52,719 bases of DNA from Candidatus Rifleibacteriota bacterium (GTDB lineage: Bacteria > Muiribacteriota > Ozemobacteria > Ozemobacterales > Ozemobacteraceae), in contig JBMOKV010000522.1 in NCBI GenBank assembly GCA_049325495.1, positions 1 to 52,719 of the forward strand, in the 5' to 3' direction. Each line of letters begins with the position of its first letter. The stretch's first letter is position 1. Both the position numbers and the translations under genes were made by a program. Below the pieces are notes generated by a model. That model made no database searches. It saw nothing but the letters and a program-made list of their open reading frames with translations, and was not told the origin of the DNA. This document shows, one piece after another, positions 128 through 37,691 of this stretch.

Positions 128-867
128 TTGCCTTCATTTCCCCCCTCCGGGTAAAAGGCGAGCAGACATGATTTGCTGTCGTAGCCCACAAATCCCGACG
201 GAATAATGGAAACTCCATTGGCAATTCCAAGAACCACGGCACCGTTGGTGGTGAGAGTGTTGGCTGTGCAGAGCGCCCAATTTGCAGTTCCTTCTTCAAA
301 ATCGTGGTTTTTCAGATAGAACGGGCTAATGCTTTCCGTCGCAGTTTTAAGTGCATTTTCGTTTCCATAATAAAGCCAGTAGTCGGTAGTGACCGATGGG
401 TTGGCATTTGCCTCAAACAGCAGGGTTACCGGAGTGGTTTTATTATCTACCGGTTCTTCGAAATTCAATATACGAAAGTGAACCAGATTGCCATTTGCAT
501 CGGTCAGGCGCAGGTCGCTCCAGTCGCTTTTGGCACCGCTTATCTGCTCGATATTCAGCTGGATTTTTTCCGAATATCGTTGCCTGGCCCTGGTTTCGGT
601 AAGCGAAATTTTACGTTTCAGGGAAAAAACCCGGCCCGTATCCGTTGCCAGAATGTTCCCAGAGTTGCCGTCCCGTCCGGGGTTGGTGTTATATAGCCTG
701 ATATAGTTACTGGCCGCGCCATCAGGGTCATTGGCTCTTACGTCGGTCAGGGTTCCGCTTAAAAAATCGGCATTGCTCGAGATTTTGTAGGAAGCTGCAG
801 CTGCAGGCCGGCAAATTAATACCGCCAGAATCAGGACATAAAAAATTAATTGTCCAGGTTTTGGCAA
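128..867 (-). CDS. Secreted DUF2341-domain protein, N-terminal part only (truncated at the 127-bp duplicate)
   Basis: TTG start at 867 with AAGGGGG RBS; signal peptide (LIFYVLILAVLICRPAAAA); DUF2341-like motifs DWSDLRLTD...YWLYYGN. The C-terminus of the called ORF 4..927 is just the antisense of the duplicated 127 bp. Confidence 0.7.
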
Positions 868-989
868 ACAGATCCCCCCTTTACGATGGTAAAAAAATAT
901 TCGGGAATATGCAAATAGAAACTTCATTCAGAAAGCAATTATGTTATTTTTTAATTGCTGATTACAATTTTTGAAAAGGATCTTTTGTT

Positions 990-1532
990 GTGAAAATTAA
1001 AGTTGTTGGGATTCTGGTTCTTTCGCTTCTTTCTTTATTTTTTTCAGGCTGTGGCTCTGCAGAAAAGAAAGTCGAGCCGGTTGAGCTGAAAACCTCTGTT
1101 AAAATCAAAGCTGATGCTGATAATGAGAAGCTGATACTGGGGGCCCTGTGGATCATGCAGAACCGAACCCCTGACTTTTTCAAGCTGGTCGATCAGAATG
1201 TAAAAGAAATCAGGCAAAGCACCGGCCAATTTACCACCGGTCCGGTAAAAACCATTGAGGGAACCGGCAGAATTGAGTTTCAAAAGTTTTCTGGCCACTA
1301 CAATGAATATAATATCGCAGATTTTCTGGTTCATGAGGCAACTCATATTGTTGACCAGAAAAAGGGGTTGCCACTGACCCGTGTCGCAGAAATAAGGGCC
1401 AGAGAAACTGAAATCGCTTTTCTTAAAGAGCTTGCAAAGGCAGAGAATCGAAGTTTCGATCAGATTATCAACTTCGTAAAGAAAGAAATCGACCAGATTA
1501 AAGCAGGAAAGCTCTATTCTGATCTTGATTAG
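990..1532 (+). CDS. Lipoprotein with HExxH zinc-metallopeptidase-like motif
   Basis: Lipobox LFFSGC after a hydrophobic N-terminus; FLVHEATH motif with a downstream Glu (AEIRA). Confidence 0.65.
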   Translation: MKIKVVGILVLSLLSLFFSGCGSAEKKVEPVELKTSVKIKADADNEKLILGALWIMQNRTPDFFKLVDQNVKEIRQSTGQFTTGPVKTIEGTGRIEFQKFSGHYNEYNIADFLVHEATHIVDQKKGLPLTRVAEIRARETEIAFLKELAKAENRSFDQIINFVKKEIDQIKAGKLYSDLD

Positions 1533-1558
1533 CATCTTAAATTTAAATGAGGAAACTT

Positions 1559-2503
1559 ATGAGTAATTTTTTTGATTGGATAAAGGAAAAAATAAATGAA
1601 ATCATGCCAGGCGAGGAAGATAAAAAAGGTTCGGTAAAGCCGATTAATGTTGCTTCTCAGCCGGTAAAACCTGGTAAAACTCCGATTCGCCAGGCAGCAG
1701 CAAGCCCTCAGGGTGAACCGGCACCGAAAAATGATAAAGCTGAAAATGAAATTTTTAAAAATTCATTGGGAATGGAATTTTGCCAGATTCCCTCTGGGCA
1801 GTTTTTCATGGGTTCAACCGTAATGGAAAATGAACAGCCCCTTCATCGGGTTCACATCAGTAAAAATTTCTATCTGGGAAAGCATACGGTAACCCAGCAG
1901 CATTTCATCGACATTATGGGCTACAACCCAGCTTATTCGCAAGGGGAAAAATTGCCGGCACTCAACATGCTTGCTGCTGCAGAGCACGATGAAGCCTTTT
2001 TCTCAAAAAATCCACCGCCGGAACAGCCTGATTTCATTCCTGACCTGCCGGTTGAAAACCTGACCTGGGAAGAAGCAACCGAATTCTGCAAAAAGCTTTC
2101 GGCTAAAGAGGGGCGTATTTATCGTCTGCCCACCGAAGCAGAATGGGAATACGCCTGCCGTGCCGGCACTTTGAAAGAATTTTACTGGGGAAAAAGCATG
2201 GATGAGCGTTTCTGCAATTATGCCAACATTTTTGCAATTCGTTCGGGTCGTCGTGGTGAAAACCCATGGGGGCTTTGCGACATGCTGGGCAACGTCTGGG
2301 AATGGTGCAGCGACTGGTATGGCCCATATTCTGATGCTGAAGCAACCGACCCGGCTGGCCCTTCTTCCGGCACTGAAAAAGTTTATCGCGGTGGGTCATA
2401 CGATATCGATATCGATACCAATTGTCGCTGCGCCAGCCGCTTTGCCGATTCACCTGCCAACCGCCGCCCCGATGTTGGCTTTCGCGTATTGCTTGAAAAG
2501 TGA
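1559..2503 (+). CDS. Formylglycine-generating enzyme (FGE/SUMF1)-domain protein
   Basis: Motifs IPSGQFFMGS, YRLPTEAEWEYACRAG, NPWGLCDMLGNVWEWC, RGGS, GFRV; GAGGA RBS before ATG 1559. Confidence 0.9.
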   Translation: MSNFFDWIKEKINEIMPGEEDKKGSVKPINVASQPVKPGKTPIRQAAASPQGEPAPKNDKAENEIFKNSLGMEFCQIPSGQFFMGSTVMENEQPLHRVHISKNFYLGKHTVTQQHFIDIMGYNPAYSQGEKLPALNMLAAAEHDEAFFSKNPPPEQPDFIPDLPVENLTWEEATEFCKKLSAKEGRIYRLPTEAEWEYACRAGTLKEFYWGKSMDERFCNYANIFAIRSGRRGENPWGLCDMLGNVWEWCSDWYGPYSDAEATDPAGPSSGTEKVYRGGSYDIDIDTNCRCASRFADSPANRRPDVGFRVLLEK

Positions 2504-2524
2504 GAGGTGGATTCTTAGCTGAAT

Positions 2525-3040
2525 CTAATGCTTGAAAAAATCCTGGTGGTATTCCCGTTTTTCCACCTGATGGCTGTTCCAGTTATTATAGTCTGGCCTG
2601 GTTAACTGCTGTGCTATGCCCGTAAATAAGCATAGACTGATTGAATAAAAAGGCCATCCCGGAAAAGCAAGTATGGCAAAGATTAATAAAACGGTCTGCA
2701 TTGCAAGAATGGCGAACGAAATTCGCCGATAGTTTTCCAGCTGTTCGTTGAGAAAATCATGGTCGCAATTTCTAAAACTGCCTATTTTCACAATTTTTGC
2801 CTTGAGCAAAAAGAATCTTGCAGCCCGGAATATGACGGGCAGACAAAACGCAGTGAGCAGCCAGTAAAGATTGAATTGCTCAAGCGCTTTTTCTTTGAGT
2901 GAAGGGGTTGAAACCGCAGTTATGGCCATAATTATCAAGGATATGGCGAAGGCTGTTCCAAAAAAACGATGTGCCCGAACCAGAGTTTTACAGGCCTCAT
3001 CAAAGCAGTCTATTTCAAATACGCGAAACATTGCTGCCAT
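2525..3040 (-). CDS. Hypothetical membrane protein (about 4 TM)
   Basis: Only the C-terminal part of ORF 2525..3610 (from MAAMFRVF) is plausible, with hydrophobic segments; the rest is antisense to the ACT/DUF711 genes. Confidence 0.55.
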   Translation of the reverse strand: MAAMFRVFEIDCFDEACKTLVRAHRFFGTAFAISLIIMAITAVSTPSLKEKALEQFNLYWLLTAFCLPVIFRAARFFLLKAKIVKIGSFRNCDHDFLNEQLENYRRISFAILAMQTVLLIFAILAFPGWPFYSISLCLFTGIAQQLTRPDYNNWNSHQVEKREYHQDFFKH

Positions 3041-3166
3041 GATATCATGGTGACGAATTTCTTTCGAATAAACTTTTTTGCCTCTGAAGTATAAATCTGC
3101 TATATTGCGGGGTACCGAAAAAACGCTGATTTCTAATTCATCGCATCCGCACCCAGGAGGTTCCAG

Positions 3167-3454
3167 GTGAACCAGAATCAAAAGGAACAGGTAGTTATCA
3201 CTGTGCTCGGCGCCAACAAGCCCGGCATTCTTGCCGGTATTACCAGAGCTATTGCCGATGCCAATGTCAACGTTGAAGACGTAAGCCAGAAAATCATGCA
3301 GGATCTGTTTGCCCTGATGATGATGACCGATTTTTCTTCGGCCAATTGCAGTTTTGAAACCTTTCAAAGCCGCATGCAGGAAGTCGCCGATCAGCTCAAG
3401 GTCAAGATTTTCATTCAGCACGAAGATGTTTTTCGCTTCCAGCACCGCCTGTGA
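3167..3454 (+). CDS. ACT domain protein (UPF0237 family)
   Basis: VITVLGANKPGILAGIT...NVEDVSQKI...QHEDVF pattern; AGGAGG RBS; canonical partner of the downstream DUF711 gene. Confidence 0.9.
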   Translation: MNQNQKEQVVITVLGANKPGILAGITRAIADANVNVEDVSQKIMQDLFALMMMTDFSSANCSFETFQSRMQEVADQLKVKIFIQHEDVFRFQHRL

Positions 3455-3466
3455 GGGAGTCATAAC

Positions 3467-4828
3467 ATGCTTTTTTCTCTTGAAGAAGTCATTGAAACCA
3501 TTTCTCAGGTCGGTGTCGAAACCTTCGATATCCGCACCATAACCTGTGGAATTAACCTGCACAGCTGCATCGACCCCGATGTGAACCGCTGTGCTGAAAA
3601 GGTTTACCAAAAGGTGGTCAAGATTGCCAAAGATCTGGTGCCAACCGCCCGTGCCATTGAAAAGAAATTCGGCATTCCCATCGTGAATAAACGCATTTCT
3701 GTTTCACCGGTTGCTCATCTGGCCGGAGCTTTCACCGAGCCTACCGCCGTTCCCATAGCCTATGCTCTCGATCAGGCAGCCAAAGACCTGGGAATCGATT
3801 ACGTCGCAGGCTTCAGTGCCCAGATTCAGAAAGGCATTACCCGCGGCGACCAGATTCTTCTCAACTCTATACCAGATGCCCTTTGCCAGACTGATCGCGT
3901 ATGTTCTAGCGTTAACATCGGCAGTTCTCAGGCAGGCATCAACATGGATGGCGTATATCGCATGGCCGAAATAGTTAAAGAAGCGGCCGAGCGCTCTAAA
4001 GACAAAAATGGTCTGGCCTGTGCCAAGCTTGTAGTGTTCTGCAACGCTGTTGAAGACAACCCCTTTATTGCCGGTTCATTCCACGGACCGGGTGAAGGCG
4101 AAGCCATTTTAAATGTGGGAATTTCAGGCCCCGGCGTCGTTCGCGCCGCTCTGGCAAAGGCCGGAAACCTCAGCTTTGGTGAACTTTCTGAGCTGATCAA
4201 AAAGATCAGTTTTAAAATCACCAGAGTTGGTGAGCTTGTCGGTCGCGAAGCCTCAAAAGCCACCGGCATACCATTTGGAATTATCGACCTTTCGCTGGCC
4301 CCAACCCCGGCCGAAGGTGATTCCATCTCCGATATTCTAGAATTGATGGGGCTCGAACGCACCGGATGCCACGGCACTACTGCCGCCCTGGCAATGCTCA
4401 ATGATGCGGTTAAAAAGGGCGGCATGATGGCCGCAACTTATGCCGGCGGTCTGTCTGGCGCTTTCATTCCATTAACCGAAGACGCGGGAATGTGTCGGGC
4501 CGTTGAAGCGGGTGCTTTGAATATTCAAAAACTCGAGGCCATGACCTGTGTCTGCTCGGTTGGTCTCGATATGGTTGCAATTCCCGGAGATACCCCGGTA
4601 GATGTTATTGCCGGTATTATTGCCGACGAAGCTGCAATCGGCATGATCAATCACAAAACAACCGCCTGTCGTCTCATTCCGGTTCCGGGAATGGTCGCCG
4701 GCGACGTGGTCGATTTCGGAGGGCTGCTGGGAAAGGGCCCAATTATCGCAGTCTCGAAGGAGATGCCTACGGTTTTTGTCAGACGTGGCGGCCGCATTCC
4801 GCCACCGGTTCACAGTATGAAAAACTGA
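3467..4828 (+). CDS. PFL-like UPF0210/DUF711 family protein
   Basis: DIRTIT.GI, VNKRISVSP, KLVVFCNAVEDNPF, EAMTCVCSVGLDM, RGGRIPPP motifs. Confidence 0.92.
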   Translation: MLFSLEEVIETISQVGVETFDIRTITCGINLHSCIDPDVNRCAEKVYQKVVKIAKDLVPTARAIEKKFGIPIVNKRISVSPVAHLAGAFTEPTAVPIAYALDQAAKDLGIDYVAGFSAQIQKGITRGDQILLNSIPDALCQTDRVCSSVNIGSSQAGINMDGVYRMAEIVKEAAERSKDKNGLACAKLVVFCNAVEDNPFIAGSFHGPGEGEAILNVGISGPGVVRAALAKAGNLSFGELSELIKKISFKITRVGELVGREASKATGIPFGIIDLSLAPTPAEGDSISDILELMGLERTGCHGTTAALAMLNDAVKKGGMMAATYAGGLSGAFIPLTEDAGMCRAVEAGALNIQKLEAMTCVCSVGLDMVAIPGDTPVDVIAGIIADEAAIGMINHKTTACRLIPVPGMVAGDVVDFGGLLGKGPIIAVSKEMPTVFVRRGGRIPPPVHSMKN

Positions 4829-4845
4829 ATTATGGTTCTTTATCG

Positions 4846-4886
4846 CAGCCCTGAAAACCAGATGACGGTTTTCGGGGCTGTTTTTT
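4846..4886 (+). terminator. Rho-independent terminator after the ACT-DUF711 operon
   Basis: cagccctgaaaacc / ggttttcggggctg stem followed by T6. Confidence 0.8.
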
Positions 4887-4890
4887 AAAT

Positions 4891-7839
4891 ATGGCTGTAA
4901 ACAAAAAAAAATCTGGAAAAGGCTTTTTTAATACCCTGCTGTTGATTCTGGCAGTTTGCATTCCTTTTTTTTCAGCAGCCTTTTATCTTGATAAGGTTAA
5001 TCAGGATCAGATTCAGCGAGTTCTTATGACTGAAAAAGCCCGGGTTATTTTTGAAATGAATCGATTTTCAGACGCTCTTGATCCGGCGAGATACATTGAA
5101 AAATGCATGAGTTTGACCGAAGAAAAACTCGCTTTGCGATCTGGTCTTATATCTGAAACAGACCCGCGTCTTTTCGATCGGCAGACTTCAACAAAAATTA
5201 AATCCTTCATCTGGAAAAACTTCCAGTTGAAGCCCGTTCTTATTGCTTCAACTGGTTTTGCCGGGCGTGATTTCTGGGCAGAATTCTCTGATGACTTCCA
5301 AAGCTTTGCGGCAGATGATCTGCAGGTTTTGAAGAATACTCTCTGTTCCTATCTGATTCTCAAGGTCATGCAGCGCAACCTGTACCAGAACTCTGAAATT
5401 TACGAGCGTTTACAGAAACTGATGATTGATGGTGAGAACGTTTTTGAAATTAACCGGGAAAAAATCGATGGAATTTTAAGCGATTTTTTGGCTCCTGCCA
5501 TACATTATCCAGAATATCCGGGAAACTGCGAAGAAATTTTTACCACCAGGTTTTCTTCCGACAAAATTTTTCTTTATTACAGCGGCAGTAGCGCCGGCAA
5601 CCTTTTCTATGGCGGCTATTTCATAGTTTTTGCAACCCGAGATCTTCCCTATCAGAAAATTTTATCGGATGCGTTGAAATCTTCCGGTGGTATTAAGCGG
5701 GCAATCGTGAACCATGGCGGTGAATTGAATGAATTGCTGGTAGAAGATTCAGCGGATATAGATTGCTACCGGGAGATACCCGGATATGTTAATTTATCAA
5801 AGCTAAAATTTAAACAAAATTTTGAAAAATCAGTTTTTTACTTGAAAACTTCCTGCTCTAAAAGTCTTGTTCTGGAAGACTTGAAGTGGTTCAATGCCAA
5901 CCTTGGTTTTATGCAGCGCATGGTCATTCTATTCATTTCAGGCATTTTAGTTTTCTCATATCTTTTTGGAATTCATGCACCCGGCAAACTTCGAGGTAAA
6001 TTTCTTTTTCTGGTCGGACTTTCAGTAATGCTTCCTTATGCAATCACCGGCTATTTCTCAGGTTTGACACTTGATTATGTCGATGGAATGAGGGAAAGAG
6101 AAAGTCTTGTCGCGGCCGAAAACCGACTTTTTGAAATAAGTCGGTCAGTAGAGGATTGTTCTCTTAAGCGGCAGTTGATCGTGCTTGAAGCAAAAAAAAG
6201 AATCGCCGACCTTTTATCGGCATGGCAGAATAAGCCCTCCGATCCTCTTGATCCAGCATCTTATCCGGGGCTCATACCCCAGTCACTGTCCGATGAGTTT
6301 ACGGTTTTTGATGCGGCCGGCGACGTGAGAGTTTTTCACAAAAATCCTGATCGATTCAGGGAGCCATATAAACTGGTAAGATTCCTGGGATACACCTACC
6401 TTGACAACATGGGGGTTCTCAAGCGGAAAAGTGGAAAGGTTAAAAGAGAGCTTGAGTTGGCCGGCCTTGCCTCTGGTTTTGCCTCCAACCTTCGTCGTGA
6501 TTACCTGGAGGGTCGAAACTTGCGTTTTGAAGGTGTAGAAATTATGAATCTTGCCAAGTTTAACCCCCTTCTGCGCATGTTTTTTCTCGTCTTCTCTCCA
6601 AAAATGCCGAAAGGTTCGCCAATAAATGCCATTGCCCTGGTTATTCTCAATGATCGGTTTTTGACCCAGCTTTTTGAGATTCTTTCTGTGCCAGGTAATC
6701 GCCTTTTTTCTGAGCAATCTAAGGGATTATCGCTTACGTATGTTCTGGGTATGAGAAATCACGAAAATTCTCTGGAAAAATGGTGGCCAAACAATGATCG
6801 CAACAGTGAAAAGCTGATTGATCTGTTGAAATTTGCCACATTAAGGGGCTACAGTGGCAGTGAAGTGCAAAAAATCGGGCAGATTTTTTCTGGGCGAATC
6901 TGGCAATATGATGCTGATTCCAAGTATGTTATTGCCGGAATTTTTTCTTCAGAACCCGACAATCTGTTGCGCCTGCTTTTTTATCTGTTTCCTTCAGCTG
7001 CGCTGGTCTTTTCTTTTATCAGCCTGCTGTTTCTCGGAGATTTTCTTGTAGAATTTTTTGCACGGCCAGTTACTGCATTTATTCCTGCATTGAAGGAAAT
7101 CAAAGAGGGAAATTACCAGGTAAGAATAAATATGGATGCCGGTGATGAGCTGGATCTTCTTTCTTCATCATTCAATCAGATGGCCGAGGGGTTGCAGCAG
7201 CGGGAAAGAATGCGAAGGTTCATTCCGGGCCAATTGTTTCAAAGAGTCGAGGATTCTGGTGCCGCAGACAAAAGAAGTTTACAGCGCCGGCATTTGTCGT
7301 TGCTTGCTTCTGATATTAGAGGGTTTACAACCTTGAGCGAAAAAGAAAAACCCGAAGATATGGTTAACTGCCTGAATGATTATTTTTCTGCAATGGAAGA
7401 GGCAGTTGTGGCTAATGGCGGAGAAATAGAAAGATTTATCGGCGATGCAATTATCGCGGTTTTCTATCCGGATAAGAATTTGAGTTCTGCATTTAAAGCT
7501 TTGAAAGCTGCATTGAAAATGAAAGAATGCCTCGAAACTTTTAACCGGCAGCGAAAAGAAAAGGGGCTTTTCCAGATTTTGAACGGAGTTGGAATCGTCA
7601 CCGATTATGCCTGGGTTGCAACTACGGGAATTCGTTCGGGTCGGCGAGTTCATATGGTGTTTGGCGAAATTGTGGCAAGGGCAAATCGACTTGAAGCTTT
7701 GACTGCAAATTTGGTCGGAAGCCGCATTGCTTTGTGTGAAAATACCAGAAATGCAAACCCTCAGGTTGCTTTTAAAAAGATCGATACTGATCAGGCTGTT
7801 TTTCAACCTGAAATAGACGGGGTTGCCCATGGCAGTTGA
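4891..7839 (+). CDS. Membrane HAMP + class III cyclase, type A1 (metal-binding half)
   Basis: TM segments, HAMP (PVTAF...GDELDLLSSSFNQMAEGL), ASDIRGFT and ERFIGDA; lacks the DK, T..N and KGK residues. Confidence 0.9.
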   Translation: MAVNKKKSGKGFFNTLLLILAVCIPFFSAAFYLDKVNQDQIQRVLMTEKARVIFEMNRFSDALDPARYIEKCMSLTEEKLALRSGLISETDPRLFDRQTSTKIKSFIWKNFQLKPVLIASTGFAGRDFWAEFSDDFQSFAADDLQVLKNTLCSYLILKVMQRNLYQNSEIYERLQKLMIDGENVFEINREKIDGILSDFLAPAIHYPEYPGNCEEIFTTRFSSDKIFLYYSGSSAGNLFYGGYFIVFATRDLPYQKILSDALKSSGGIKRAIVNHGGELNELLVEDSADIDCYREIPGYVNLSKLKFKQNFEKSVFYLKTSCSKSLVLEDLKWFNANLGFMQRMVILFISGILVFSYLFGIHAPGKLRGKFLFLVGLSVMLPYAITGYFSGLTLDYVDGMRERESLVAAENRLFEISRSVEDCSLKRQLIVLEAKKRIADLLSAWQNKPSDPLDPASYPGLIPQSLSDEFTVFDAAGDVRVFHKNPDRFREPYKLVRFLGYTYLDNMGVLKRKSGKVKRELELAGLASGFASNLRRDYLEGRNLRFEGVEIMNLAKFNPLLRMFFLVFSPKMPKGSPINAIALVILNDRFLTQLFEILSVPGNRLFSEQSKGLSLTYVLGMRNHENSLEKWWPNNDRNSEKLIDLLKFATLRGYSGSEVQKIGQIFSGRIWQYDADSKYVIAGIFSSEPDNLLRLLFYLFPSAALVFSFISLLFLGDFLVEFFARPVTAFIPALKEIKEGNYQVRINMDAGDELDLLSSSFNQMAEGLQQRERMRRFIPGQLFQRVEDSGAADKRSLQRRHLSLLASDIRGFTTLSEKEKPEDMVNCLNDYFSAMEEAVVANGGEIERFIGDAIIAVFYPDKNLSSAFKALKAALKMKECLETFNRQRKEKGLFQILNGVGIVTDYAWVATTGIRSGRRVHMVFGEIVARANRLEALTANLVGSRIALCENTRNANPQVAFKKIDTDQAVFQPEIDGVAHGS

Positions 7840-10720
7840 AAAGATCATCATCCGGCGTCAAATAAGCTGGGGGCTTTTGTTTGTCCTTTGGCTGCTTCTG
7901 TTGGCAATTCCAGCTGTTTTTCTTGATTTTTCTCTTGCATATTTGTTCAAGTTTTCATTTGAAAGAAATTGTTCGGCGAAAAAATCCTGGCTGGTGAATG
8001 AAATAGAATTGTTTCGCCAGAAAATCGATGCGGAAAAATTTTTGCAGAGTAAGCTTATTGAATTTTTCCACAGTCGCGATTTTATGGCAGAAAGTCTCAA
8101 TGCTGCCGAAATCGCCAGAAGTTTTCAAAAAAAATCCGGGATAATTCCCTCGGCGGTTTTTATTAATGATTCTGAATTGAACGATCAGGTGTGTTTTTTT
8201 GTCAAAGAAGAATTTTTTAATAAGATTGGCTTTATTGGCAGATCCTTAACCCGAAAATACATGAATTCCCGTCAACTTCAGGAAAAACTTTTTTCCGACA
8301 CCGAAATTTCCGGTGACGAGCTGGTGTCAAACCGGATCAGGCAACAGATCGATGAAGCTGACCTTTTTTTAATGAAGCAGTTTTCTCTGGTTTCCCCATG
8401 CCCGGTTATGTCTGGGCAGGTTTTCTCATCAGTTTCTGCCAGAGCGAACGATCGCCTGTTTTTCTATTATGGCTCTCTTCCGTCTGTCAATACGGGGATA
8501 ATGATGATCTTTTCAGGGATGGATCTTGACCTTAAGAAAATTTTAAAAGAAAGTTTGATTTCTGACTCTGCGTTTATACAACGATCTTTTGCTTTGAAGA
8601 AAATGATTGCAGATGATCTTGTTCAGCCAGAAGCAGAAAAAATTACCGAGTTCGTGAGCAACGAAAAAGGCATTCAACTTCAGGCACCTTTGCCACAGCC
8701 TTTTTTGTCTTTGTTAATACAGAATTCCGGGTTCTATCCCCATAGAATCGAGCAGTTTCGTCAGTTTTTGCCGATTCTGAAAGTGTCTATTCATTCTGAC
8801 CAGTTACAGCACCCACTGAAAAGATGGCATGGGACTATTAAATCTCTCAGCAAATCAGCGGTTTTGGCGGGGTTGCTTTTTTGTTTTTATTTCGGACTGT
8901 TTGGTTTTTCCTTAAAAGCAGGAGTCAGACAAAAAGCAGTGTTTGGAATCGCGATGATTGCCTGGCTTCCACTTGCCATGATGATGGCATCATACCTGAG
9001 CTGGCGTGAAATTTCCCTGGTGCGCTACGGTTTCGAAACCGATGACCGATTATCGCAAATCGCAAATGATATGGCACTGCGCTTTGATTCTTTTCTTTTG
9101 AAACAGCAGAAAATGACCCGTAAGATTGCAGATAAAATTGAAGAGATTGTCAATTCTGACAAAGATTCTCTTACCGGTTTAATAAACAGAGAAATCTCTT
9201 CTACTTTTGCCAGAGAGGCTTTTTATGATGTCGTTGATCGTGAAGGGGTTTATGTAAAAACCGGCAAAGCTCTGGTAAACCCGGAAGCCGACCGCAGCGA
9301 AAATTTCATGAGACATGCGTTGGCAGTAAGTCTCTTGCAGGCAGTTTCTTATAAAAAACAGTCAAAGATTGAAAAATTTTCCAACTACGAAGACCAGGGC
9401 CTCTTCAGGCCAAATCCAGAATTTATCAACTCTCTGTTGAACAAGAAAACCAGACTTTTTACTTTTAAATCATTCAATTCAAATTATGCCTATACTTTAG
9501 AACCGGTTTCTTCTGCAAAAATAGGAACAGTGAAAAGTTTTATCTGTCTGCGTTTTGAAAAAGACGAGTTGATAAGGCAGTTTATTAAAACTTTTGAAAG
9601 CTTCGAACAAGATGGAATTGAATTGAATTTTGTAAAATATCGTGAAAATATTGGTGTTTTCAGATACGAACCAATGCGTAATTTTTATAGTTTATCTGAA
9701 CTTCAGCCGATTCTTGATCTTGTGCTGACCACAAAAAGATCGCGATTGGTTGATCTTAAAAATTCCCGAAGTCTGATTTTTTTTATTCCTGATTATCCGT
9801 TTTTGATTATCTGTCAGTCTCAGAAAAAAATTGGAGAAAACGACCGGAAAATGGTTTTTCTGGTGATTTTTTACATGACTTTTCTTGTGTTTGTTATTTT
9901 CAGACTTTTCGGCAGTCTTTATGTTACGCCGTTAATGCAACTGTCACAGGTTGCCAGAGATGTGGCAGATGGCAATTATTACAGTTCTGCCAGCATAAAC
10001 ACATTCGATGAATTTTTTCAATTGAATAAAACATTTGATTTAATGATAAAAGGTGTGATTCAGAAAGAAAAACTGTTGCAGTTCGTTTCATCTGATGTTG
10101 CACAGGCCGTAAAAAGCAACGATGATTCATCGCTTTCTCCGGGAGGTGAAAGGGTCGAGGCAACTATTGCTTTTATTACCATCGCTGGTATCGAACAGAT
10201 GCTCGAAAACACTGATTCTGAAAAGCTTCTGGATATTCTTGAAACATTCATTGCTGCAGGAAACAAAATTGCTGCGCAAAATAATGGTGTTCTGGATAAA
10301 GTTATCGAAAATACACTTATGCTGGTATTTCGCGGTATGGCAAATGGGCAATCTGATGCTTTAAGGGCATGCACCTCGGTTTTGCAGATGCAGAAACTCA
10401 TGGCACAAGAAAATATGCCTATTCAGGCGGGTATTGCCAGCGGTTTCGTCGTTTCGGGTAAGATTGGTTCGCGATCAGGCAAACTTGATTTTACCGTTAT
10501 CGGTGACCCGGTAAATCTGGCGGCAAGGCTGAAAGGTCAGGCTTGTAAAGCTTGCCAGACCGGCATTCTGATAAGCGCTTCAGTTATCAGAAAGGCGCGT
10601 GGTATGGTTAAGGTGAATTTTATCGAGCGGGTCAGCCTGAAAGGAAAAACCCGAAAATACCAGCTTTATGAGCTTGTTTCTTTAAGAGTGGCAACGAATT
10701 GCGAGGAGAAACCGTGTTGA
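7829..10720 (+). CDS. Membrane HAMP + class III cyclase, type B1 (substrate/transition-state half)
   Basis: HAMP (PLMQL...DEFFQLNKTFDLM); GGERVEATI, DKVIEN, DFTVIGDPVNLAARLK, LKGK; both metal Asp lost (FITIAG, IENT). ATG 7829 overlaps the A1 stop. Confidence 0.9.
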   Translation: MAVEKIIIRRQISWGLLFVLWLLLLAIPAVFLDFSLAYLFKFSFERNCSAKKSWLVNEIELFRQKIDAEKFLQSKLIEFFHSRDFMAESLNAAEIARSFQKKSGIIPSAVFINDSELNDQVCFFVKEEFFNKIGFIGRSLTRKYMNSRQLQEKLFSDTEISGDELVSNRIRQQIDEADLFLMKQFSLVSPCPVMSGQVFSSVSARANDRLFFYYGSLPSVNTGIMMIFSGMDLDLKKILKESLISDSAFIQRSFALKKMIADDLVQPEAEKITEFVSNEKGIQLQAPLPQPFLSLLIQNSGFYPHRIEQFRQFLPILKVSIHSDQLQHPLKRWHGTIKSLSKSAVLAGLLFCFYFGLFGFSLKAGVRQKAVFGIAMIAWLPLAMMMASYLSWREISLVRYGFETDDRLSQIANDMALRFDSFLLKQQKMTRKIADKIEEIVNSDKDSLTGLINREISSTFAREAFYDVVDREGVYVKTGKALVNPEADRSENFMRHALAVSLLQAVSYKKQSKIEKFSNYEDQGLFRPNPEFINSLLNKKTRLFTFKSFNSNYAYTLEPVSSAKIGTVKSFICLRFEKDELIRQFIKTFESFEQDGIELNFVKYRENIGVFRYEPMRNFYSLSELQPILDLVLTTKRSRLVDLKNSRSLIFFIPDYPFLIICQSQKKIGENDRKMVFLVIFYMTFLVFVIFRLFGSLYVTPLMQLSQVARDVADGNYYSSASINTFDEFFQLNKTFDLMIKGVIQKEKLLQFVSSDVAQAVKSNDDSSLSPGGERVEATIAFITIAGIEQMLENTDSEKLLDILETFIAAGNKIAAQNNGVLDKVIENTLMLVFRGMANGQSDALRACTSVLQMQKLMAQENMPIQAGIASGFVVSGKIGSRSGKLDFTVIGDPVNLAARLKGQACKACQTGILISASVIRKARGMVKVNFIERVSLKGKTRKYQLYELVSLRVATNCEEKPC

Positions 10721-13680
10721 ATTCTGATGTTGCGATGAAAACAAAATTGCAGCCCGGCTCTCAAAATCGTATTTCGAATATTCTTCTAGGCTTAACCCTT
10801 GTTCTTTTAATTTTGCTGCCCGCAAATTTCATTGCAGAGGGTATTGCCGGTGCGGCAAAGCAGAACTTTGAGCGCCAGAAAGTATCTGCTCTGCTTGAAC
10901 TTCAGCATGAGTTGCTGCGCTTTAAACTTGACCTTATACCCAGATACCAGGCTGAAAGTATTATTAGAGATGTGGAAAAAGCCTGCGGTCTTGTACCGCT
11001 GGGGCAGAAGGTGCCTAACTTCGGATCCGGGCAGTTTCCAGACGTTTATAATGATTCGACCCTTGCACAGATGCTGGCAAAATTTAAATTACTGCATGAT
11101 GTTGAACCGGTTTTTCTGCTTACTGCATCAGCTGATCTGGCAAAAATTAAAGCTTTTTACAGTAATGATCTGAAAGACCTGCCGGAAAGTGACAAAAAGT
11201 CGCTTGAAGCAAACGTTGCATGTTGCATTACCGACTTGAGTGCTCTAAAGAGTGTGGTTAACGATCCTTTGGCCGAAGAACGTTTTTCGCAGCTTTTCAA
11301 ATCTGCCAGAGGGTCATACAAAAACCAGTCAGATTCTCTCTATGTCGTGTTGAGAAAGGTATTTTCAGAATTATACTGCAATCCCCGATATCATGGCAGC
11401 ACCTACGAGATTTGTGGCGACCGTTTTGGCAGCCTGCGAATGTTTCTGCATTATAATCGCATGAAAGAAAGGGAAAAATTTTACGGTGGATATTTTGTGG
11501 TATTGGCAAGCAAGGATTTAGAACCGGAAACCCTGATGAAAAAAGCTTTGAGGCCCGCAATTCCTGGTCTGATCAGAGGTTTTGGCGACCAGGCAAAATT
11601 CGACAAGGCCAGTCTTTATCTTGAAAGTTTGACTTCCGGGGAAATTTTCGGCTATTCAAGGCTTTTTAATGAAAATTTTAAGATTCCCGAAAAAATCTTT
11701 GTATCCAGATCTTTGAATGAAGAAATCAAAAGATATAAACAAATTAAAACAAATGTTTCAATGGCAAAAAAAATTGTTCTTTTGATTTCAATTTTTCTTC
11801 TGGCTGCAATAGCTCTCAGGGGTTGGCCAGACCCTGGTCGATTGAAACTCCAGCTTCTTTTGATGATCAGTCTGATAGTTCTGATTCCGTATGTGGTTCT
11901 CGGCTACTTGTCTTTCATGCTTCTTGATGGCATCGACAAACTTAGACCTGAAGAAGCAAGGGCTGAAATTGAAAGACACCTTTATGAACTTGAAAGATAC
12001 TATGAAGACCAGAAACTGCAGCATTTAGCAAGATTGTTTGCCGGAAAACAGCGGCTGATTACTCATATGAGCGATTCGGATAAAAATTTTGATGAGCTTG
12101 ATGCCCACAAAATTGTGGAGTCCGATTTTCATGGCAATTTTTTCTTTTATCGAGATGATGGCTATTCTCGCAAGTTTGCCTCAGGGGTAATACAAAGCAA
12201 ACGTTCTCTTCGGCTCTATGAACAGATTAGCGCAAGTATTCTGTCTAACCTTGGTTTTCTCGACAAAAATTCAGGTAAAGCAAAGAAAGATCTCGAATTT
12301 TCCAGCCTGACCGATGGATTTTTGTCCGAATCAAAACGAGGATTTCTGGAACACGAAATTTTTACCAGAGAAGGTGTTGAGGTCGTTGATTTCAGCAAAG
12401 TTGACGATTTTTCCCGAATTGTTTTCTTTCTGATTCCGCAAAAAAATAAAGTGAATTCAACGGTTAAGGGATTGGTGATTGCGCCGGTAGCCGATATAAA
12501 CACCAACATATATCAGCAGCACAATTTCAAGGATTCCGTTTTTTTCAAGCATACTTTGTTTTCTCAGGCAAACCTTTCATTGGGAATGAGGAGAGGAAAC
12601 GATACTCTAAGTCAGTGGTGGCCTGATAAAATTGGTTCAAGCAGCAATTTGAAGCGATTGCTTGATTTTTCATCAATTACTCATAGTAGTGGTAGTCTGG
12701 TCAAAAATGGTGAGCGCAGTATTGATATAGATAAATGGCTGTTTAAAAAGGGTGAATCAATGGTTTTTGCTGCTCACATTCAAAGCAATTCAAATATTGC
12801 CATTGAACTTTATGCCAGAATCTTTCCGCTGCTGCTGTTTCTTTTTTCACTGATCTCTCTTTTTCTTTTTGCCGACCTGCTGGATTCGCTGTTTATCGCA
12901 CCGGTCTATGGGCTATCTAAAGCTGCCAGACTCATTGGTCTGGGAAATTACCAGGTGCGACTTCAGGTTGCCGGACAGGATGAGCTTGCTGAATTGTCCA
13001 AGTCGTTCAATCAGATGGCTGACAGTCTTGCTCAGCGTGAGAAACTCAGGCGTTTTATTTCTGAGGATCTTTTTCAGCAGATCAAGGTTCAAAAAAGCAA
13101 TTTTGAAGCTCAGAAGCTGACATGTAGAAACCTGACTGTTCTTGCTTCTGACATTCGTGGTTTTACCGCGATTTCAGAAAAATATAATCCAGAAGAGGTC
13201 GTCAGTCTTTTAAATGATTATTTTACTGAAATGGAAGCCGCCATTACTGCATATGGTGGGCATATCGTCAGATTTGTCGGCGATGCAGTAATAGCAGCTT
13301 TTTACCATGACGATCCTGAGATCTCTACCATGAATGCGGTTAAGGCGGCCTTGAAGATGCGAGAAGCCCTGATGGATCTTAATCGGCGGCGCCTGGAACT
13401 TAAGCTTTTTACTATAGAAAATGGAATCGGTATTGCATCTGGCCAGGCTTTTGCCGGCGTTGCCGGTGCTGCACAGGGACGAAAGGTATTCTGTGTTGTC
13501 GGTGACTTGACAATGAGAGCTGAAGAGCTTGAGGCGATGAGCAAAATGTCCAATTTCAACCGAATCCTGTTGTGCGAAAAATCCGCTGAATGTGCCCGCA
13601 ATTCTTTAAAACTGGTCAGGCTTGAAACAAAAAATGATTCAGCGCCAGTTTATGATCTGGTTGGAGCCTGCGATGTCTGA
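10714..13680 (+). CDS. Membrane HAMP + class III cyclase, type A2 (metal-binding half)
   Basis: GTG start with GAGGAG RBS overlapping the B1 stop; HAMP (QDELAELSKSFNQMA); ASDIRGFT, VRFVGDA; degenerate FCVVGDLTMRAEELE; no KGK. Confidence 0.9.
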   Translation: MLNSDVAMKTKLQPGSQNRISNILLGLTLVLLILLPANFIAEGIAGAAKQNFERQKVSALLELQHELLRFKLDLIPRYQAESIIRDVEKACGLVPLGQKVPNFGSGQFPDVYNDSTLAQMLAKFKLLHDVEPVFLLTASADLAKIKAFYSNDLKDLPESDKKSLEANVACCITDLSALKSVVNDPLAEERFSQLFKSARGSYKNQSDSLYVVLRKVFSELYCNPRYHGSTYEICGDRFGSLRMFLHYNRMKEREKFYGGYFVVLASKDLEPETLMKKALRPAIPGLIRGFGDQAKFDKASLYLESLTSGEIFGYSRLFNENFKIPEKIFVSRSLNEEIKRYKQIKTNVSMAKKIVLLISIFLLAAIALRGWPDPGRLKLQLLLMISLIVLIPYVVLGYLSFMLLDGIDKLRPEEARAEIERHLYELERYYEDQKLQHLARLFAGKQRLITHMSDSDKNFDELDAHKIVESDFHGNFFFYRDDGYSRKFASGVIQSKRSLRLYEQISASILSNLGFLDKNSGKAKKDLEFSSLTDGFLSESKRGFLEHEIFTREGVEVVDFSKVDDFSRIVFFLIPQKNKVNSTVKGLVIAPVADINTNIYQQHNFKDSVFFKHTLFSQANLSLGMRRGNDTLSQWWPDKIGSSSNLKRLLDFSSITHSSGSLVKNGERSIDIDKWLFKKGESMVFAAHIQSNSNIAIELYARIFPLLLFLFSLISLFLFADLLDSLFIAPVYGLSKAARLIGLGNYQVRLQVAGQDELAELSKSFNQMADSLAQREKLRRFISEDLFQQIKVQKSNFEAQKLTCRNLTVLASDIRGFTAISEKYNPEEVVSLLNDYFTEMEAAITAYGGHIVRFVGDAVIAAFYHDDPEISTMNAVKAALKMREALMDLNRRRLELKLFTIENGIGIASGQAFAGVAGAAQGRKVFCVVGDLTMRAEELEAMSKMSNFNRILLCEKSAECARNSLKLVRLETKNDSAPVYDLVGACDV

Positions 13681-16543
13681 TAAAACAATCAAAACCAGCG
13701 TTTCAATTTCTGCCGTTACCATTTTTCTGTGCTGGTTGACCGTGTTTCTTTTTCCGGCCGTAACTTTCAGACTATGCCTGGATTGGTTGTTTGACCTTAC
13801 TTACCAGACTGGCTGCCGTGCCGCCCAACGCGAAATGGTAAATGAAATGACCGCCTTCAGAGATCAGGCTCGCACTGTTCCTTCTCTTGAACGCATGTTG
13901 AGAGATTTTTGCAGAGAAAACACTCATACAGCAGATGTTCAGAACCCGGAAAAATTCAGGGAAAGATTGTTAAAAACTTATGGAATACCAGCTGCCTTAT
14001 GTATAACCCATGGAAAAGACTCCGAAGAACTTGAATTCTTTATTCAAAAGGATTTTTCAGACAGGATCAAAGTTTTTCCAAGAAAGCTTACCCAGAAAGC
14101 GCTTTTTGCTTTTAATAATCAACATCAGCATTGCTTTTTTTCAAAGAAAAATGAGGCGGCGACAAAAAGAATATTTGAAAAAGATGGCTCCCAGGAAGTT
14201 TTTCGCTCGGCAAGGTTGTTTCTCAAACAGCATTTTGCTCTGATAGCTGAAATGCCTCTATTGGAAGATCGCGTTATAAAAACCATTTCCGGCAGGTTGG
14301 GAGGCCCGGTCTATTTTTATTATCATGCTTTTCGCGAGAATATAAATGGGAGGCCGGGAATCAGTAATGGTGTTTTGCTGCTGCTGGCAGGTAATCAACT
14401 GAACTATCGCCAGATTCTTGAGAATTCTCTGGTTTCTGAAAATGCCAGAGTAACCAGAAGTTTTGCTCGACTTCCGGTAATCTTGCCTGGACAGTATCGC
14501 AATGACAATTCCATTTTCAGTCATTTCGTAACCGGGCCAGAAGGTTTTACACTCAAGGGAATGTTATCTCAGGAAATGGTAGCTGATTTAATTCAAAGAG
14601 GCACTTTGTTTCCCTTGAAGTTTTCTCAAACTCTCGAAAGAATGCCGGTTCTCGAAGTTACCACAGGCAGAGCTTTAATGCAGCACCCACTAACCCCTTA
14701 TAACCGTCTGATTAATCTGCTGTTACGCCTTTTTGTGGCTGGTGGTGGGATTTTTCTTCTTCACATGTACTTCTTTGGACTGCAGTTTCTGAAAGGCGTG
14801 CGTCAGAAAATTATCATTGGTTTATTCTTTATTCTGCTTCTGCCCGGTAGCCTGGTTTTGGTTGCCATGCTTACCTGGTTCGAATCTGGCCGGCTGGAAT
14901 CAAGGTATTTAACCGAAAATCGGCTGAAAAATATCTCTGAATCATTTCAGCAGAAGTTTCAGGATTATCTTACTTCGGCCCAGTTTGCCACCCTGCAACT
15001 GACAAAAAGAATTGAAGAAAAGGCTGCCAGAATCGGTTCAAAAGAGCTTGAAGCTGAATTGCAGAAATTTCTTGAAAATTCAGATGCGCACATGATTGGC
15101 TGTGATGATCTTGTCTATGGCCCGTTTTACTTATCTACTTCAGAAGCAAAAGGTGTTTTTAAGAATGAAGAAGACATGCTTAAAACCACTTCCCGGACCG
15201 TTCTTAATTCATTCAGACACGATGGCGGGTTCGATATCAATCTTGCCGACGCAGGCAACAGTTTTACCACAGTTCACCCATCATTTATAAATGAAATTTT
15301 GAGTTTTTGGGGAAGACTTGTGGAGTTTGGCCGGTTTTCGACTGGCAACAGGTTTTCAATCGTACCTGTTCTTTTTCCCGGAATGTCTTCACCGCGCGCA
15401 TTTATTATTGCATGCTTTTCTCAGAAAAATCTGATCAGGGGATTTGTCAGAAACAAAATACAGGGTTCCTATGATTTTCCCGGTTTGAAAATATTCTTTT
15501 TTGAAAAACAAGTGGGTGGCCACCGTTTCTTCGATGGTGGCTCAGGTAAAACCGTAACCGATTCTGCCACGGTAAAATCTTTGGATGATGCTTTGAAAGG
15601 CAGCGATATAATTGTGAGTGATTTTTCGGGAGGAATTAGATTTCAGCAGGTTCTGGTCGATTTTCCGGTGATTCTGCAGATTGATGGTCATTTTCCGAGA
15701 ACTGGTTCTGACAGAATCAGTGATTTTGCTTTGCTTGCCACATTGGCAATTTTGTTGTTCTCATTTGCCTGGATATATTTTGGGCGCATTTATCTTGAGC
15801 CGGTTCACGAATTCACCCGGATTACCAGACTGCTGTTTGCCGGAAATTACCAGGTTAGTCCGAATATTTTTTCGGTCGATGAATTTGGTGAACTTAAAAA
15901 AGCATTTGATTCGATGATTGAAGGCATTTATCAGAAGGAAAAAATGTCACAGTTCGTTTCTGCAGAAGTATTGCAGACCATCAATGACGAAAGTTCCGCA
16001 ACCTTTCAACCTGATGGCGAGAGAATCGAGGCAACCATATCATTTGTAAGATTTCCTGCCCTGAATCTGCTCAAAGATCCCGAAAAAATTGCCGAAAAAA
16101 TTGGCCAGATCATTGAACTGGTTGAAAAAGCCGCGGCCAGCCATGGCGGCATAATTGATAAAATTATTGAAGACACGGTAATGCTTGTTTTCAGAAAACC
16201 ATCATCACATGCTGTTTCATGCTGTAATGCATTAATCGAAATCAAGGAAAGGGCTGAGCAGCTTGAAATGAAGATTGAGGCCGGCATTGCAACCGGAGAA
16301 GTGGTAATGGGCCGGATTGGTTCGCGCCTGGGAAAATTGGATTTTACCGTGATCGGCGATGCGGTCAACCTTGCTGCGCGACTGAAAGCGCATGGTAAGA
16401 AAGCGGTCGCCACCGGCATAATCATTGCCCCGTCAACCATCAGAAAAGTTAAAGGTCAGGCCCGGGTCGCTTTTATCGACCGGGTTGAAATAAAAGGTAA
16501 AAGCAGAGCTTTTCAACTTTATGAGCTTGCCGGCTTAAGGTAG
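13673..16543 (+). CDS. Membrane HAMP + class III cyclase, type B2 (substrate/transition-state half)
   Basis: ATG 13673 with GGAG RBS overlapping the A2 stop; HAMP (DEFGELKKAFDSM); FVRFPA (first Asp lost), DKIIED, DFTVIGDAVNLAARLK, IKGK. Confidence 0.9.
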   Translation: MSDKTIKTSVSISAVTIFLCWLTVFLFPAVTFRLCLDWLFDLTYQTGCRAAQREMVNEMTAFRDQARTVPSLERMLRDFCRENTHTADVQNPEKFRERLLKTYGIPAALCITHGKDSEELEFFIQKDFSDRIKVFPRKLTQKALFAFNNQHQHCFFSKKNEAATKRIFEKDGSQEVFRSARLFLKQHFALIAEMPLLEDRVIKTISGRLGGPVYFYYHAFRENINGRPGISNGVLLLLAGNQLNYRQILENSLVSENARVTRSFARLPVILPGQYRNDNSIFSHFVTGPEGFTLKGMLSQEMVADLIQRGTLFPLKFSQTLERMPVLEVTTGRALMQHPLTPYNRLINLLLRLFVAGGGIFLLHMYFFGLQFLKGVRQKIIIGLFFILLLPGSLVLVAMLTWFESGRLESRYLTENRLKNISESFQQKFQDYLTSAQFATLQLTKRIEEKAARIGSKELEAELQKFLENSDAHMIGCDDLVYGPFYLSTSEAKGVFKNEEDMLKTTSRTVLNSFRHDGGFDINLADAGNSFTTVHPSFINEILSFWGRLVEFGRFSTGNRFSIVPVLFPGMSSPRAFIIACFSQKNLIRGFVRNKIQGSYDFPGLKIFFFEKQVGGHRFFDGGSGKTVTDSATVKSLDDALKGSDIIVSDFSGGIRFQQVLVDFPVILQIDGHFPRTGSDRISDFALLATLAILLFSFAWIYFGRIYLEPVHEFTRITRLLFAGNYQVSPNIFSVDEFGELKKAFDSMIEGIYQKEKMSQFVSAEVLQTINDESSATFQPDGERIEATISFVRFPALNLLKDPEKIAEKIGQIIELVEKAAASHGGIIDKIIEDTVMLVFRKPSSHAVSCCNALIEIKERAEQLEMKIEAGIATGEVVMGRIGSRLGKLDFTVIGDAVNLAARLKAHGKKAVATGIIIAPSTIRKVKGQARVAFIDRVEIKGKSRAFQLYELAGLR

Positions 16544-16593
16544 ATTTGTCTTTATCGCTGTTTATTAAAATGCACGAAAGGAATCCTCAGGCT

Positions 16594-16956
16594 ATGGAGA
16601 ATCAGAACGTTCAACAGCCTTCGGAAAATGAAAATTCCTATGGTTTGTTTCTGCCGGTTGAATTCAGTGGTTTCAGGGTATTTTTCTGGTATTCTTTCGT
16701 ATTTTTGATTTTTTCCTTGATGGCATCTGTAGTTTTGAACAGCATAAGACCAGATGGCACTCTGGTAGTGGTTTTTGGTTACCTGAATTCCTTATGTTTT
16801 GGATTTGCCTTCTTGTATGAAAACCGGATTCGCTGGTTCAAGGGAAAGGTTTATTCAGCTCTTTTCATTTTCTGTCTGGTTTTATGGGCGCTTTTTTCAA
16901 TAGTTCTCGCCTTTTTATTCCTGATAAATACCATATTTGTCGGTGGATTGCATTGA
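16594..16956 (+). CDS. Small membrane protein (about 3 TM)
   Basis: Three hydrophobic stretches; immediately downstream of the cyclase cluster; start codon uncertain. Confidence 0.55.
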   Translation: MENQNVQQPSENENSYGLFLPVEFSGFRVFFWYSFVFLIFSLMASVVLNSIRPDGTLVVVFGYLNSLCFGFAFLYENRIRWFKGKVYSALFIFCLVLWALFSIVLAFLFLINTIFVGGLH

Positions 16957-24719: not shown

Positions 24720-24722
24720 AGA

Positions 24723-37548: not shown

Positions 37549-37560
37549 AATTCCCGAAAA

Positions 37561-37590
37561 AAAACCGGCTGGCAATGGCCAGCCGGTTTT
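37561..37590 (+). terminator. Terminator after clostripain 1
   Basis: aaaaccggctggc-aatg-gccagccggtttt. Confidence 0.75.
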
Positions 37591-37662
37591 AAGCTTTCTT
37601 TAAGAATTTGAAAGTTTGTATTGAGTATTTGTCTGCCAGTATAAAGAATTTTTTCGAAGTCC

Positions 37663-37691
37663 TTGACATCGTACCCTCTGGTTTTTATAAT
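37663..37691 (+). promoter_or_regulatory. Consensus sigma70 promoter of clostripain 2
   Basis: TTGACA (37663-37668), 17 bp spacer, TATAAT (37686-37691); AAGGAG RBS downstream. Confidence 0.85.

Follow-up and report, generated by a model that had tools for sequence, protein, structure and literature searches.

Can a bacterial class III cyclase be divided between two separately encoded subunits, each carrying one half of the catalytic residues? The active site of these enzymes spans the dimer interface and depends on two aspartates for metal binding, a lysine/threonine pair for base specificity, an asparagine/arginine pair for transition-state stabilization, and the lysine of a KGK segment for phosphate binding. 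The question is raised by positions 4891–16543 of contig JBMOKV010000522.1 from a Candidatus Rifleibacteriota bacterium, the whole analyzed stretch of 52,719 nucleotides being referred to here as the window. Four open reading frames (ORFs) on the + strand fill this locus in the gene order A1-B1-A2-B2, and each encodes a class III cyclase of ~970–990 residues with four predicted transmembrane (TM) segments. The residues of these proteins and the distribution of their relatives point to membrane receptor adenylyl cyclases in two paralogous pairs, each of which would be active solely as an A/B heterodimer with one active site, a reading to which a probability of about 0.85 is assigned.

Seven catalytic columns are read in the order Asp1 Asp2, Lys Thr Asn Arg, and KGK-Lys, using alignments to Pseudomonas aeruginosa CyaB (3r5g) and other solved bacterial cyclases, as well as a hidden Markov model (HMM) alignment of all domains. 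In the HMM alignment, the type-A subunit A1 (4891–7839, + strand, 982 residues) reads D D, R M A R, and a gap, and the second type-A subunit, A2 (from GTG 10714 or ATG 10735 to 13680, + strand), reads D D, R C M E, and E. Both keep the two metal-binding Asp residues. A1 has Arg for Lys, Met for Thr, and Ala for Asn, retains the Arg, and has no KGK segment; A2 has Arg for Lys, Cys for Thr, Met for Asn, and Glu for Arg. The type-B subunits B1 (7829–10720, + strand, 963 residues from ATG 7829) and B2 (13673–16543, + strand) read T N, K T N R, K and R D, K T N R, K, respectively. Their Lys/Thr and Asn/Arg sets are complete, and so is the KGK lysine, whereas the metal pair is not: Thr and Asn replace the two Asp in B1, and Arg replaces the first in B2, the second being kept (IIED). 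Judged from these columns, the full class III residue set would be assembled across an A/B pair only. An earlier note on this DNA had described long intact frames with overlapping stop and start codons and a reciprocal loss in both pairs. The frames and all three overlapping junctions are present, the motifs it quoted are all found in the four translations, and the 3r5g and HMM alignments agree on the reciprocal loss, to which they add the Arg kept by A1 and the second Asp kept by B2, a position that the note had given as GD>ED. The Lys and Thr specificity pair of B1 and B2 is also found in CyaB. A second specificity residue of Thr rather than Asp is presumably a class IIIb habit, which the pair in B1 and B2 fits.

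In the proposed arrangement, all subunits share a common layout of TM1, a periplasmic module, a TM2-TM3 hairpin, a second module, TM4, a HAMP domain, and the cyclase domain. The A subunit would give the two metal-binding Asp, and the B subunit would give Lys and Thr for adenine recognition, Asn and Arg for the transition state, and the Lys that binds phosphate. Pairing A with B would then create one complete ATP-to-cyclic AMP (cAMP) site and one degenerate pseudo-site, while A/A would lack the Asn/Arg side and B/B the metal site, such that both homodimers would have little or no activity. Translational coupling through the overlapping stop and start codons, or covalent fusion, would keep cognate halves together among ~20 paralogous pairs, and at sister loci both halves are joined in a ~2000-residue polypeptide. 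Two different periplasmic sensor inputs would be integrated via a heterodimeric HAMP. From the sequences, we infer heterodimerization, homodimer inactivity, the cAMP product, and two-sensor integration via HAMP.

The division is not a peculiarity of four genes. In separate alignments of the HAMP and cyclase regions of each type, both Asp are invariant in 43/43 A-type sequences, whereas 43/43 B-type sequences share the Lys, Thr, Asn, and Arg without exception and have the KGK lysine at least 90% conserved. In both alignments, the HAMP and cyclase interface regions are the best-conserved parts. The losses shared across A-type paralogues are those of Asn and/or Arg plus the KGK segment. The substitution of Lys by Arg and of Thr by Met or Cys, which had been taken to mark type A, holds in the window but not as a general rule, as many A paralogues keep Lys and Thr.

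The source genome (G000) is a Candidatus Riflebacteria metagenome-assembled genome (MAG) of 4.9 Mb in 677 contigs and is 86% complete; its nearest relatives with a name are Candidatus Riflebacteria, Rifleibacteriota, and Ozemobacteraceae. It contains 69 cyclase domains by Pfam and 71 by an HMM that was seeded with the cyclase domains of A1, B1, A2, and B2 and run iteratively against six-frame ORFs. Under strict classification, these 71 comprise 22 canonical, 20 A, 23 B, and 6 odd domains; under a relaxed rule for A (both Asp present and any loss among Lys, Thr, Asn, and Arg), they comprise 23 A, 23 B, 22 canonical, and 3 odd. Two residue-based labels are artefacts, one of an alignment gap (C603) and one of truncation (C667). 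Half-site types thus make up about two-thirds of the 71 domains (~22 each). The two pairs of the earlier note are correct for the window but not as the full extent of the system, since the genome holds ~20 pairs plus fusions.

The two types occur side by side. Out of 22 same-strand neighbor pairs within 4 kb, 19 are A/B (14 A then B and 5 B then A, the latter including junctions between pairs), and none is A/A or B/B. This pattern greatly exceeds chance: none of 100,000 label shuffles reaches 19 A/B pairs (maximum 13), a figure that is descriptive rather than a true probability because the paralogues are non-independent. A B partner is adjacent or fused to 18 of the 22 A-type domains, and the remaining four are cut at contig ends. 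Apparent orphans severed in the same manner are C265 (A), C406 and C445 (both B), C219, C384, and C667. A canonical domain adjoins A/B pairs in a single case (C326). Two damaged-looking B-type genes lie beside intact A genes: that of C513 (3956–6824) is split by a single stop or frameshift, and the cyclase domain of that of C463 (3432–6122) ends early. These may be decaying pairs or assembly errors. The genome also yields 13 matches to domains that bind cyclic nucleotide monophosphates (cNMP), which could serve as readers of the signal.

A second form of the pair is covalent. Contig C278 of the source genome encodes P0012, an uninterrupted frame of 1985 residues that contains the whole architecture twice, with eight predicted TM segments and the A domain followed by the B domain. 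Three further long frames with a mid-frame A domain in the same genome are severed at contig ends. End-to-end relatives of P0012, likewise uninterrupted and ~1970–2050 residues long, are found in many genomes of family f1 at 27–83% identity and often in tandem. With the cyclase homology domains named by position (CHD1 and CHD2), all 10 of the full-length fused relatives examined have an A-type CHD1 and a B-type CHD2. The A-B composition is found in 96 of 113 long proteins retrieved from a collection of 5.8 billion proteins. All near-full-length matches to the fusion that carry an organism name belong to Riflebacteria, with annotations that read hypothetical protein, HAMP domain-containing protein, or adenylate/guanylate cyclase domain-containing protein.

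Residue counts in 94 fusions provide a test without circular labelling, as the domains are labelled by position only. Asp1 is kept in 94/94 CHD1 and in 1/94 CHD2, where Gly occupies the column in 83; Asp2 is kept in 94/94 CHD1, and CHD2 has Asp in 55 and Glu in 38. Thr is kept in 1/94 CHD1 against 93/94 CHD2, Asn in 7/94 against 93/94, Arg in 14/94 against 93/94, and the KGK lysine in 0/94 against 92/94. Lys is common to both positions (93/94 CHD1 and 94/94 CHD2). The degenerate second site accordingly has a CHD1 Lys in 93/94 and an acidic CHD2 residue in 93/94 fusions. Loss among homologues, in the 43 A and 43 B sequences as well as in the fusions, is reciprocal. One database protein, P0076 (1997 residues), is fused but has a full set in its first domain (DD K S N R) and a B-type second domain; it may be an intermediate with a single side degenerated.

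Strict adjacency, which had been proposed as a check, extends to other genomes. In family f1, an A-type domain lies directly upstream of the B1 homologue on the same strand in 18/18 testable loci, a nineteenth being left out as it is severed at a contig end. In family f10, the reciprocal signature is found in 12/12 pairs examined, in the order B then A, and families f2 and f3 show it in 5/5 candidate pairs, also B then A, with proteins of ~710–770 residues. Judged by coordinate spacing only, with not all domains classified, same-strand pairs were not seen in f11 (5 genomes), f4, or f6–f9, and four single domains with short Pfam matches proved canonical. A genome of family f8 contains a 1550-residue frame (L053, G065:C52:86000-93500, ORF 493–5142, – strand) with an A-type domain at residues 218–370, followed after ~100 residues by a B-type domain at 475–614. 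With its two domains in tandem, this frame adds a third way of arranging the divided site, seen in yet another family of the phylum. A further database protein, P0115, carries two cyclase domains and an ATPase domain in a single chain.

Among the best 120 of 1095 matches to the A-type profile, which do not amount to a systematic survey, the named organisms outside the phylum (Leptospira, Turneriella, Leptospiraceae, Desulfuromonadaceae, and Polyangiaceae) have domains that are canonical or differ only by Asn for Lys. The nearest relatives outside the phylum in this set are canonical dCache-HAMP-cyclase proteins of ~610 residues from Leptospira and others. Eight dCache-HAMP-cyclase proteins of ~610 residues (P0195, P0199, P0202, P0203, P0210, P0218, P0229, and P0238) have Asn for the base-specifying Lys with all other residues kept, and one of the eight is named Desulfuromonadaceae. 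These are a different variant from the half-site types. B1 alone gave seven matches in a large protein database owing to a low-sensitivity word filter, and alignment and fused-protein queries were more productive.

Both halves are under purifying selection. Between the fused orthologues of G000 and G014 (83% identity, Nei-Gojobori method), the approximate ratio of nonsynonymous to synonymous substitution rates (dN/dS) is 0.078 overall, 0.052 for HAMP plus CHD1, and 0.060 for HAMP plus CHD2, well below the value of 1 that had been set as a check. The halves also diverge together: across 16 cognate pairs, distances among the A proteins correlate with those among the B proteins (r = 0.70), a value reached by none of 20,000 shuffles (maximum 0.55), and nearest-neighbor agreement of partners is 9/16. 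This correlation shows the pairs to have probably duplicated and diverged as units. The sensor regions of A-type proteins match A-type ORFs only and those of B-type proteins match B-type ORFs only; therefore, the two subunits would bring different sensors.

A tree of 69 domains from the source genome, computed with the seven catalytic columns removed and two short rows left out, has modest support and no inferred root. In this tree, 22 of the 23 A-labelled domains fall in a single group (Shimodaira–Hasegawa-like approximate likelihood ratio test, SH-aLRT, 85) and 19 of the 23 B-labelled domains in a single clade (SH-aLRT 92). Three more B domains, from B-then-A pairs, adjoin a canonical domain, and the canonical ~1000-residue paralogues C267 and C482 lie at the base. 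The topology fits an origin of each half-type once or a few times from a canonical ancestor within the lineage, followed by duplication of pairs. The four-gene locus itself appears to be an old duplication of an A-B pair, because A1 and A2 (31% identity over 845 residues) and B1 and B2 (30% over their full length) are alike at ~30%, while the likeness of A to B is confined to the HAMP and cyclase regions, at 22% identity.

A structure model of the A1+B1 HAMP and cyclase regions, with ATP and two Mg ions included, scores 0.83 as a heterodimer, while the highest-scoring of three controls gives 0.00. In calibration, 58/80 solved complexes and 2/110 mismatched pairs attain the mark set for this score. 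Model runs agree on at least 90% of contacts, and the predicted local distance difference test (pLDDT) value of the partners is at least 83. The predicted interface includes both HAMP domains and linker helices and the catalytic residues of B, namely Lys142, Thr207, Asn214, Arg218, and 255–259 (the Lys256 region). Because class III dimers have already been solved, a pass is expected as likeness to these dimers and is no proof of pairing.

An alternative arrangement of the same half-enzymes would be a combinatorial signaling mesh in which any A pairs with any B among the ~20 pairs. The presence of more than 40 half-site subunits in a single genome would permit such a mesh, as would the strong conservation of the HAMP and cyclase interface regions in both types, and the nearest-neighbor concordance of partners is just 9/16. 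However, stop/start overlap at every junction in the window and the conservation of covalent A-B fusions would favor cognate partners, as would the co-divergence of cognate partners and the tendency of A and B sensor regions to follow their own type. Some cross-pairing may still occur, but a general mesh is considered unlikely.

Less likely still is that both types have lost catalysis and serve, as homo- or heterodimers, as receptors or scaffolds, either modulating the 22 canonical cyclases or signaling through another output. Each domain by itself does lack essential residues, and canonical domains with all residues are encoded in the same genome. Yet dead proteins would have no reason to keep the complementary half-site exactly, as in the 43/43 sequences of each type, or to hold the pattern by position in 94 fusions; the dN/dS of ~0.05–0.06 applies to both domains, and no canonical domain is regularly found beside the pairs, C326 being the single case. 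That the odd residues stem from pseudogenes, assembly errors, or chance loss in a fast-expanding family is hardly credible, despite the fragmentation of the MAG and the two broken-looking B genes of C513 and C463, given four intact window ORFs, recurrence in independent assemblies from four families of the phylum and in ~100 database cluster representatives, and strong purifying selection.

The proposal of a single working site per A/B pair, with both homodimers inactive, is thus supported by adjacency, fusions, residue invariance, purifying selection, and co-divergence, and by a confident heterodimer model of the kind expected from solved dimers. Several points weigh against the obligate heterodimer. 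A1 retains its Arg and B2 its second Asp, and many A paralogues retain Lys and Thr or one of Asn and Arg; with these residues retained, some members may show weak homodimer activity. The complex model cannot tell a heterodimer from a homodimer, and A1+B1 is the sole combination modelled. Tandem co-duplication alone could explain the adjacency and mirror-tree signals, the paralogues being non-independent samples, and the dN/dS values are approximate as dS is 0.8–1.5, near saturation. The source genome is fragmented, with several A or B genes severed at contig ends. Finally, the B gene of C217 has no recognizable A neighbor, its upstream gene being divergent and its downstream gene cut by the contig end, and it may be a true orphan.

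The design closely resembles that of the mammalian membrane enzymes AC1-9 (class IIIa, C1/C2), in which the first domain likewise holds the metal-binding Asp and the second the base, transition-state, and phosphate residues, giving one active and one degenerate site. In the fused relatives (C278 of the source genome and the 94 database proteins), the Asp domain also comes first. The mammalian-like C1/C2 division of the earlier note therefore stands as a description of design but not of descent. Both A and B best match the same bacterial CyaB/Cya2-type enzymes, and their matches in the PDB include no mammalian transmembrane adenylyl cyclase chain at an E-value of 0.001. No specific homology of A to C1 or of B to C2 is found; instead, both types cluster with canonical paralogues from their own genome, pointing to an independent origin. 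Each half has four TM segments, two large periplasmic modules, and a HAMP domain rather than six TM segments, such that the single-chain 2 × 6 TM layout of the mammalian enzymes is replaced by separate genes of four TM segments each in the window and by 2 × 4 TM in the fused relatives. The second specificity position is Thr, not Asp. Despite the equal design, these features place the halves outside class IIIa.

A broader interpretation is that the phylum reinvented the mammalian adenylyl cyclase design independently and that all stages still coexist, namely canonical homodimers, half-site pairs in both orders, ~2000-residue whole-receptor fusions, and tandem-domain forms. The A/B unit would then be a two-input receptor, and its degenerate site an allosteric pocket. 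This combination is put forward tentatively, the balance of probability lying somewhat against it as a whole.

Tandem cyclases of the soluble adenylyl cyclase (sAC) C1-C2 type resemble the G065 frame and P0115 in having two cyclase domains per chain. However, the window encodes separate membrane receptors, and the main fusion doubles the whole sensor-HAMP-cyclase unit. Kobayashi is said to have described, in 2004, bacterial sAC-like enzymes that carry two domains. The closest solved relatives of the window proteins are P. aeruginosa CyaB and other bacterial homodimers (3r5g, 2w01, and 1wc0; E-values of 1e-15 to 1e-19), which share the Lys/Thr pair but have a full residue set in every subunit, and hence two sites in each homodimer.

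In function, the nearest precedent is an engineered one. The D300A and R376A variants of Rv1625c, each inactive, complement one another as a heterodimer (Guo et al. 2001, as cited in PMC4821796), a result that also supports the residue roles used here. As in the A/B pairs, one subunit lacks a metal-binding Asp and the other the transition-state Arg; yet these are laboratory point mutants of a natural homodimer, whereas the division described here is natural, multi-residue, conserved, and genome-wide. Soluble guanylyl cyclase α/β and chytrid RGC/NeoR also need two different subunits, according to PMC8815786 and PMC7655827, but these are eukaryotic, make cGMP, and use other sensors (H-NOX and rhodopsin, respectively). 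The papers searched describe no counterpart of them in bacteria.

In a 2022 review (PMC9552081), bacterial class III cyclases are said to homodimerize, and fused dimeric species are described as unknown in bacteria; PMC4821796 and PMC5699072 likewise treat the bacterial enzymes as homodimers. All three sources convey the accepted view that bacterial enzymes have two equivalent sites and that duplication and fusion gave rise to the asymmetric one-site design in eukaryotes. The full-text literature searched yielded no half-site heterodimer occurring naturally in bacteria, although older subscription reviews or supplements may contain a passing mention. A bacterial phylum with natural obligate half-site pairs and conserved fusions would depart from this homodimer picture. 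It would offer a tractable, G-protein-free model for why asymmetry evolves, what purpose a degenerate site serves, and how two sensors act on one catalytic center, with homodimer, heterodimer, and fusion states comparable among living relatives. It also calls for caution in annotation, as “adenylate/guanylate cyclase domain-containing protein” may denote half an enzyme.

The gene junctions are consistent with joint expression of the halves. B1 starts at ATG 7829, upstream of the A1 stop codon at 7837–7839 (an 11-nucleotide overlap, 7829–7839, + strand), an arrangement that suggests translational coupling. At the B1/A2 junction (10704–10720, + strand), AGGAG at 10704–10708 lies 5′ of the in-frame GTG at 10714, and B1 stops at 10718–10720. 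The A2/B2 junction (13663–13680, + strand) has a GGAG ahead of the B2 ATG at 13673 and the A2 stop at 13678–13680, an overlap of eight nucleotides. Stop and start codons thus overlap at all three junctions, and a Shine-Dalgarno-like GGAG or AGGAG precedes two of them.

Domain assignments are in line with this layout. PF00211 matches the C-termini of all four proteins in Pfam, with E-values of 4.6e-12 (A1), 4e-10 (B1), 7.9e-16 (A2), and 3.8e-9 (B2). A1 comprises TM1, a periplasmic module, TM2/3, another periplasmic module, TM4, a HAMP domain at ~7087–7200, and a cyclase domain at ~7294–7755; in A2, the HAMP and cyclase domains are at ~12913–13032 and ~13126–13596. HAMP (PF00672) is found by Pfam in A1 and A2, and B1 and B2 score below the Pfam threshold. 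The corresponding region of the B proteins weakly matches the HAMP regions of histidine kinases, and the B1 model shows a helix-loop-helix at residues 671–750. B1, with four TM segments and this divergent HAMP, has its periplasmic modules at ~7937–8818 and ~9014–9838 and its cyclase domain at ~10157–10654, and the B2 cyclase domain is at ~16046–16507.

The full-length B1 model has a pLDDT of 77, and its cyclase domain superimposes on CyaB (3r5g) with a TMt of 0.81 and a root-mean-square deviation (rmsd) of 2.5 Å; a fold search with the whole protein returns cyclase matches only. When the sensor region is modelled separately (pLDDT 78.7), the best folds are the dCache ligand-binding domains of chemoreceptors and histidine kinases (E ~1e-4, probability 1.0, TMt ~0.5, rmsd 8–9 Å). 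In the model, a long helix precedes alpha/beta units in both modules, at least one of which probably has a dCache-like fold. A Pfam match to Cache is absent from all four window proteins. In the ESM Atlas, the B1 sensor retrieves mainly Rifleibacteriota clusters, and weak matches to dCache_3 and CHASE9 (score 0.90) are leads only.

The genes flanking the locus are unrelated, with a DUF711 gene upstream and an esterase downstream on the opposite strand. A strong terminator-like hairpin at 4845–4890 (+ strand) has a 15-bp stem with eight G-C pairs and a T-run reaching exactly to the start codon of A1 (4891). Unlike those of A2 and B2, the A1 start is not preceded by a Shine-Dalgarno motif, and a promoter-like site lies just upstream of the hairpin, at 4809–4836. 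The hairpin may terminate the DUF711 gene or act as a regulatory leader for the cyclase operon. Three nucleotides past the B2 stop begins an ORF of ~136 residues (16546–16956, + strand). Its product is small and very hydrophobic and has no Pfam match, and it may be a fifth gene of the operon.

Elsewhere in the window, a 647-residue ORF at 28962–30905 (– strand) joins MmeI-type restriction-modification domains to an IS66-family DDE transposase domain. Its MmeI parts are the N-terminal domain, the helicase spacer, and a methyltransferase limited to its first 56 positions, and it looks like an MmeI-like gene interrupted by an insertion sequence. Three T2SSE-type secretion or pilus ATPases are encoded at 23265–26393 (– strand) and 51515–52717 (+ strand), two of which have MshEN domains, known to bind cyclic di-GMP. 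Two tandem clostripain-family (Peptidase_C11) genes are located at 36178–39093 (+ strand).

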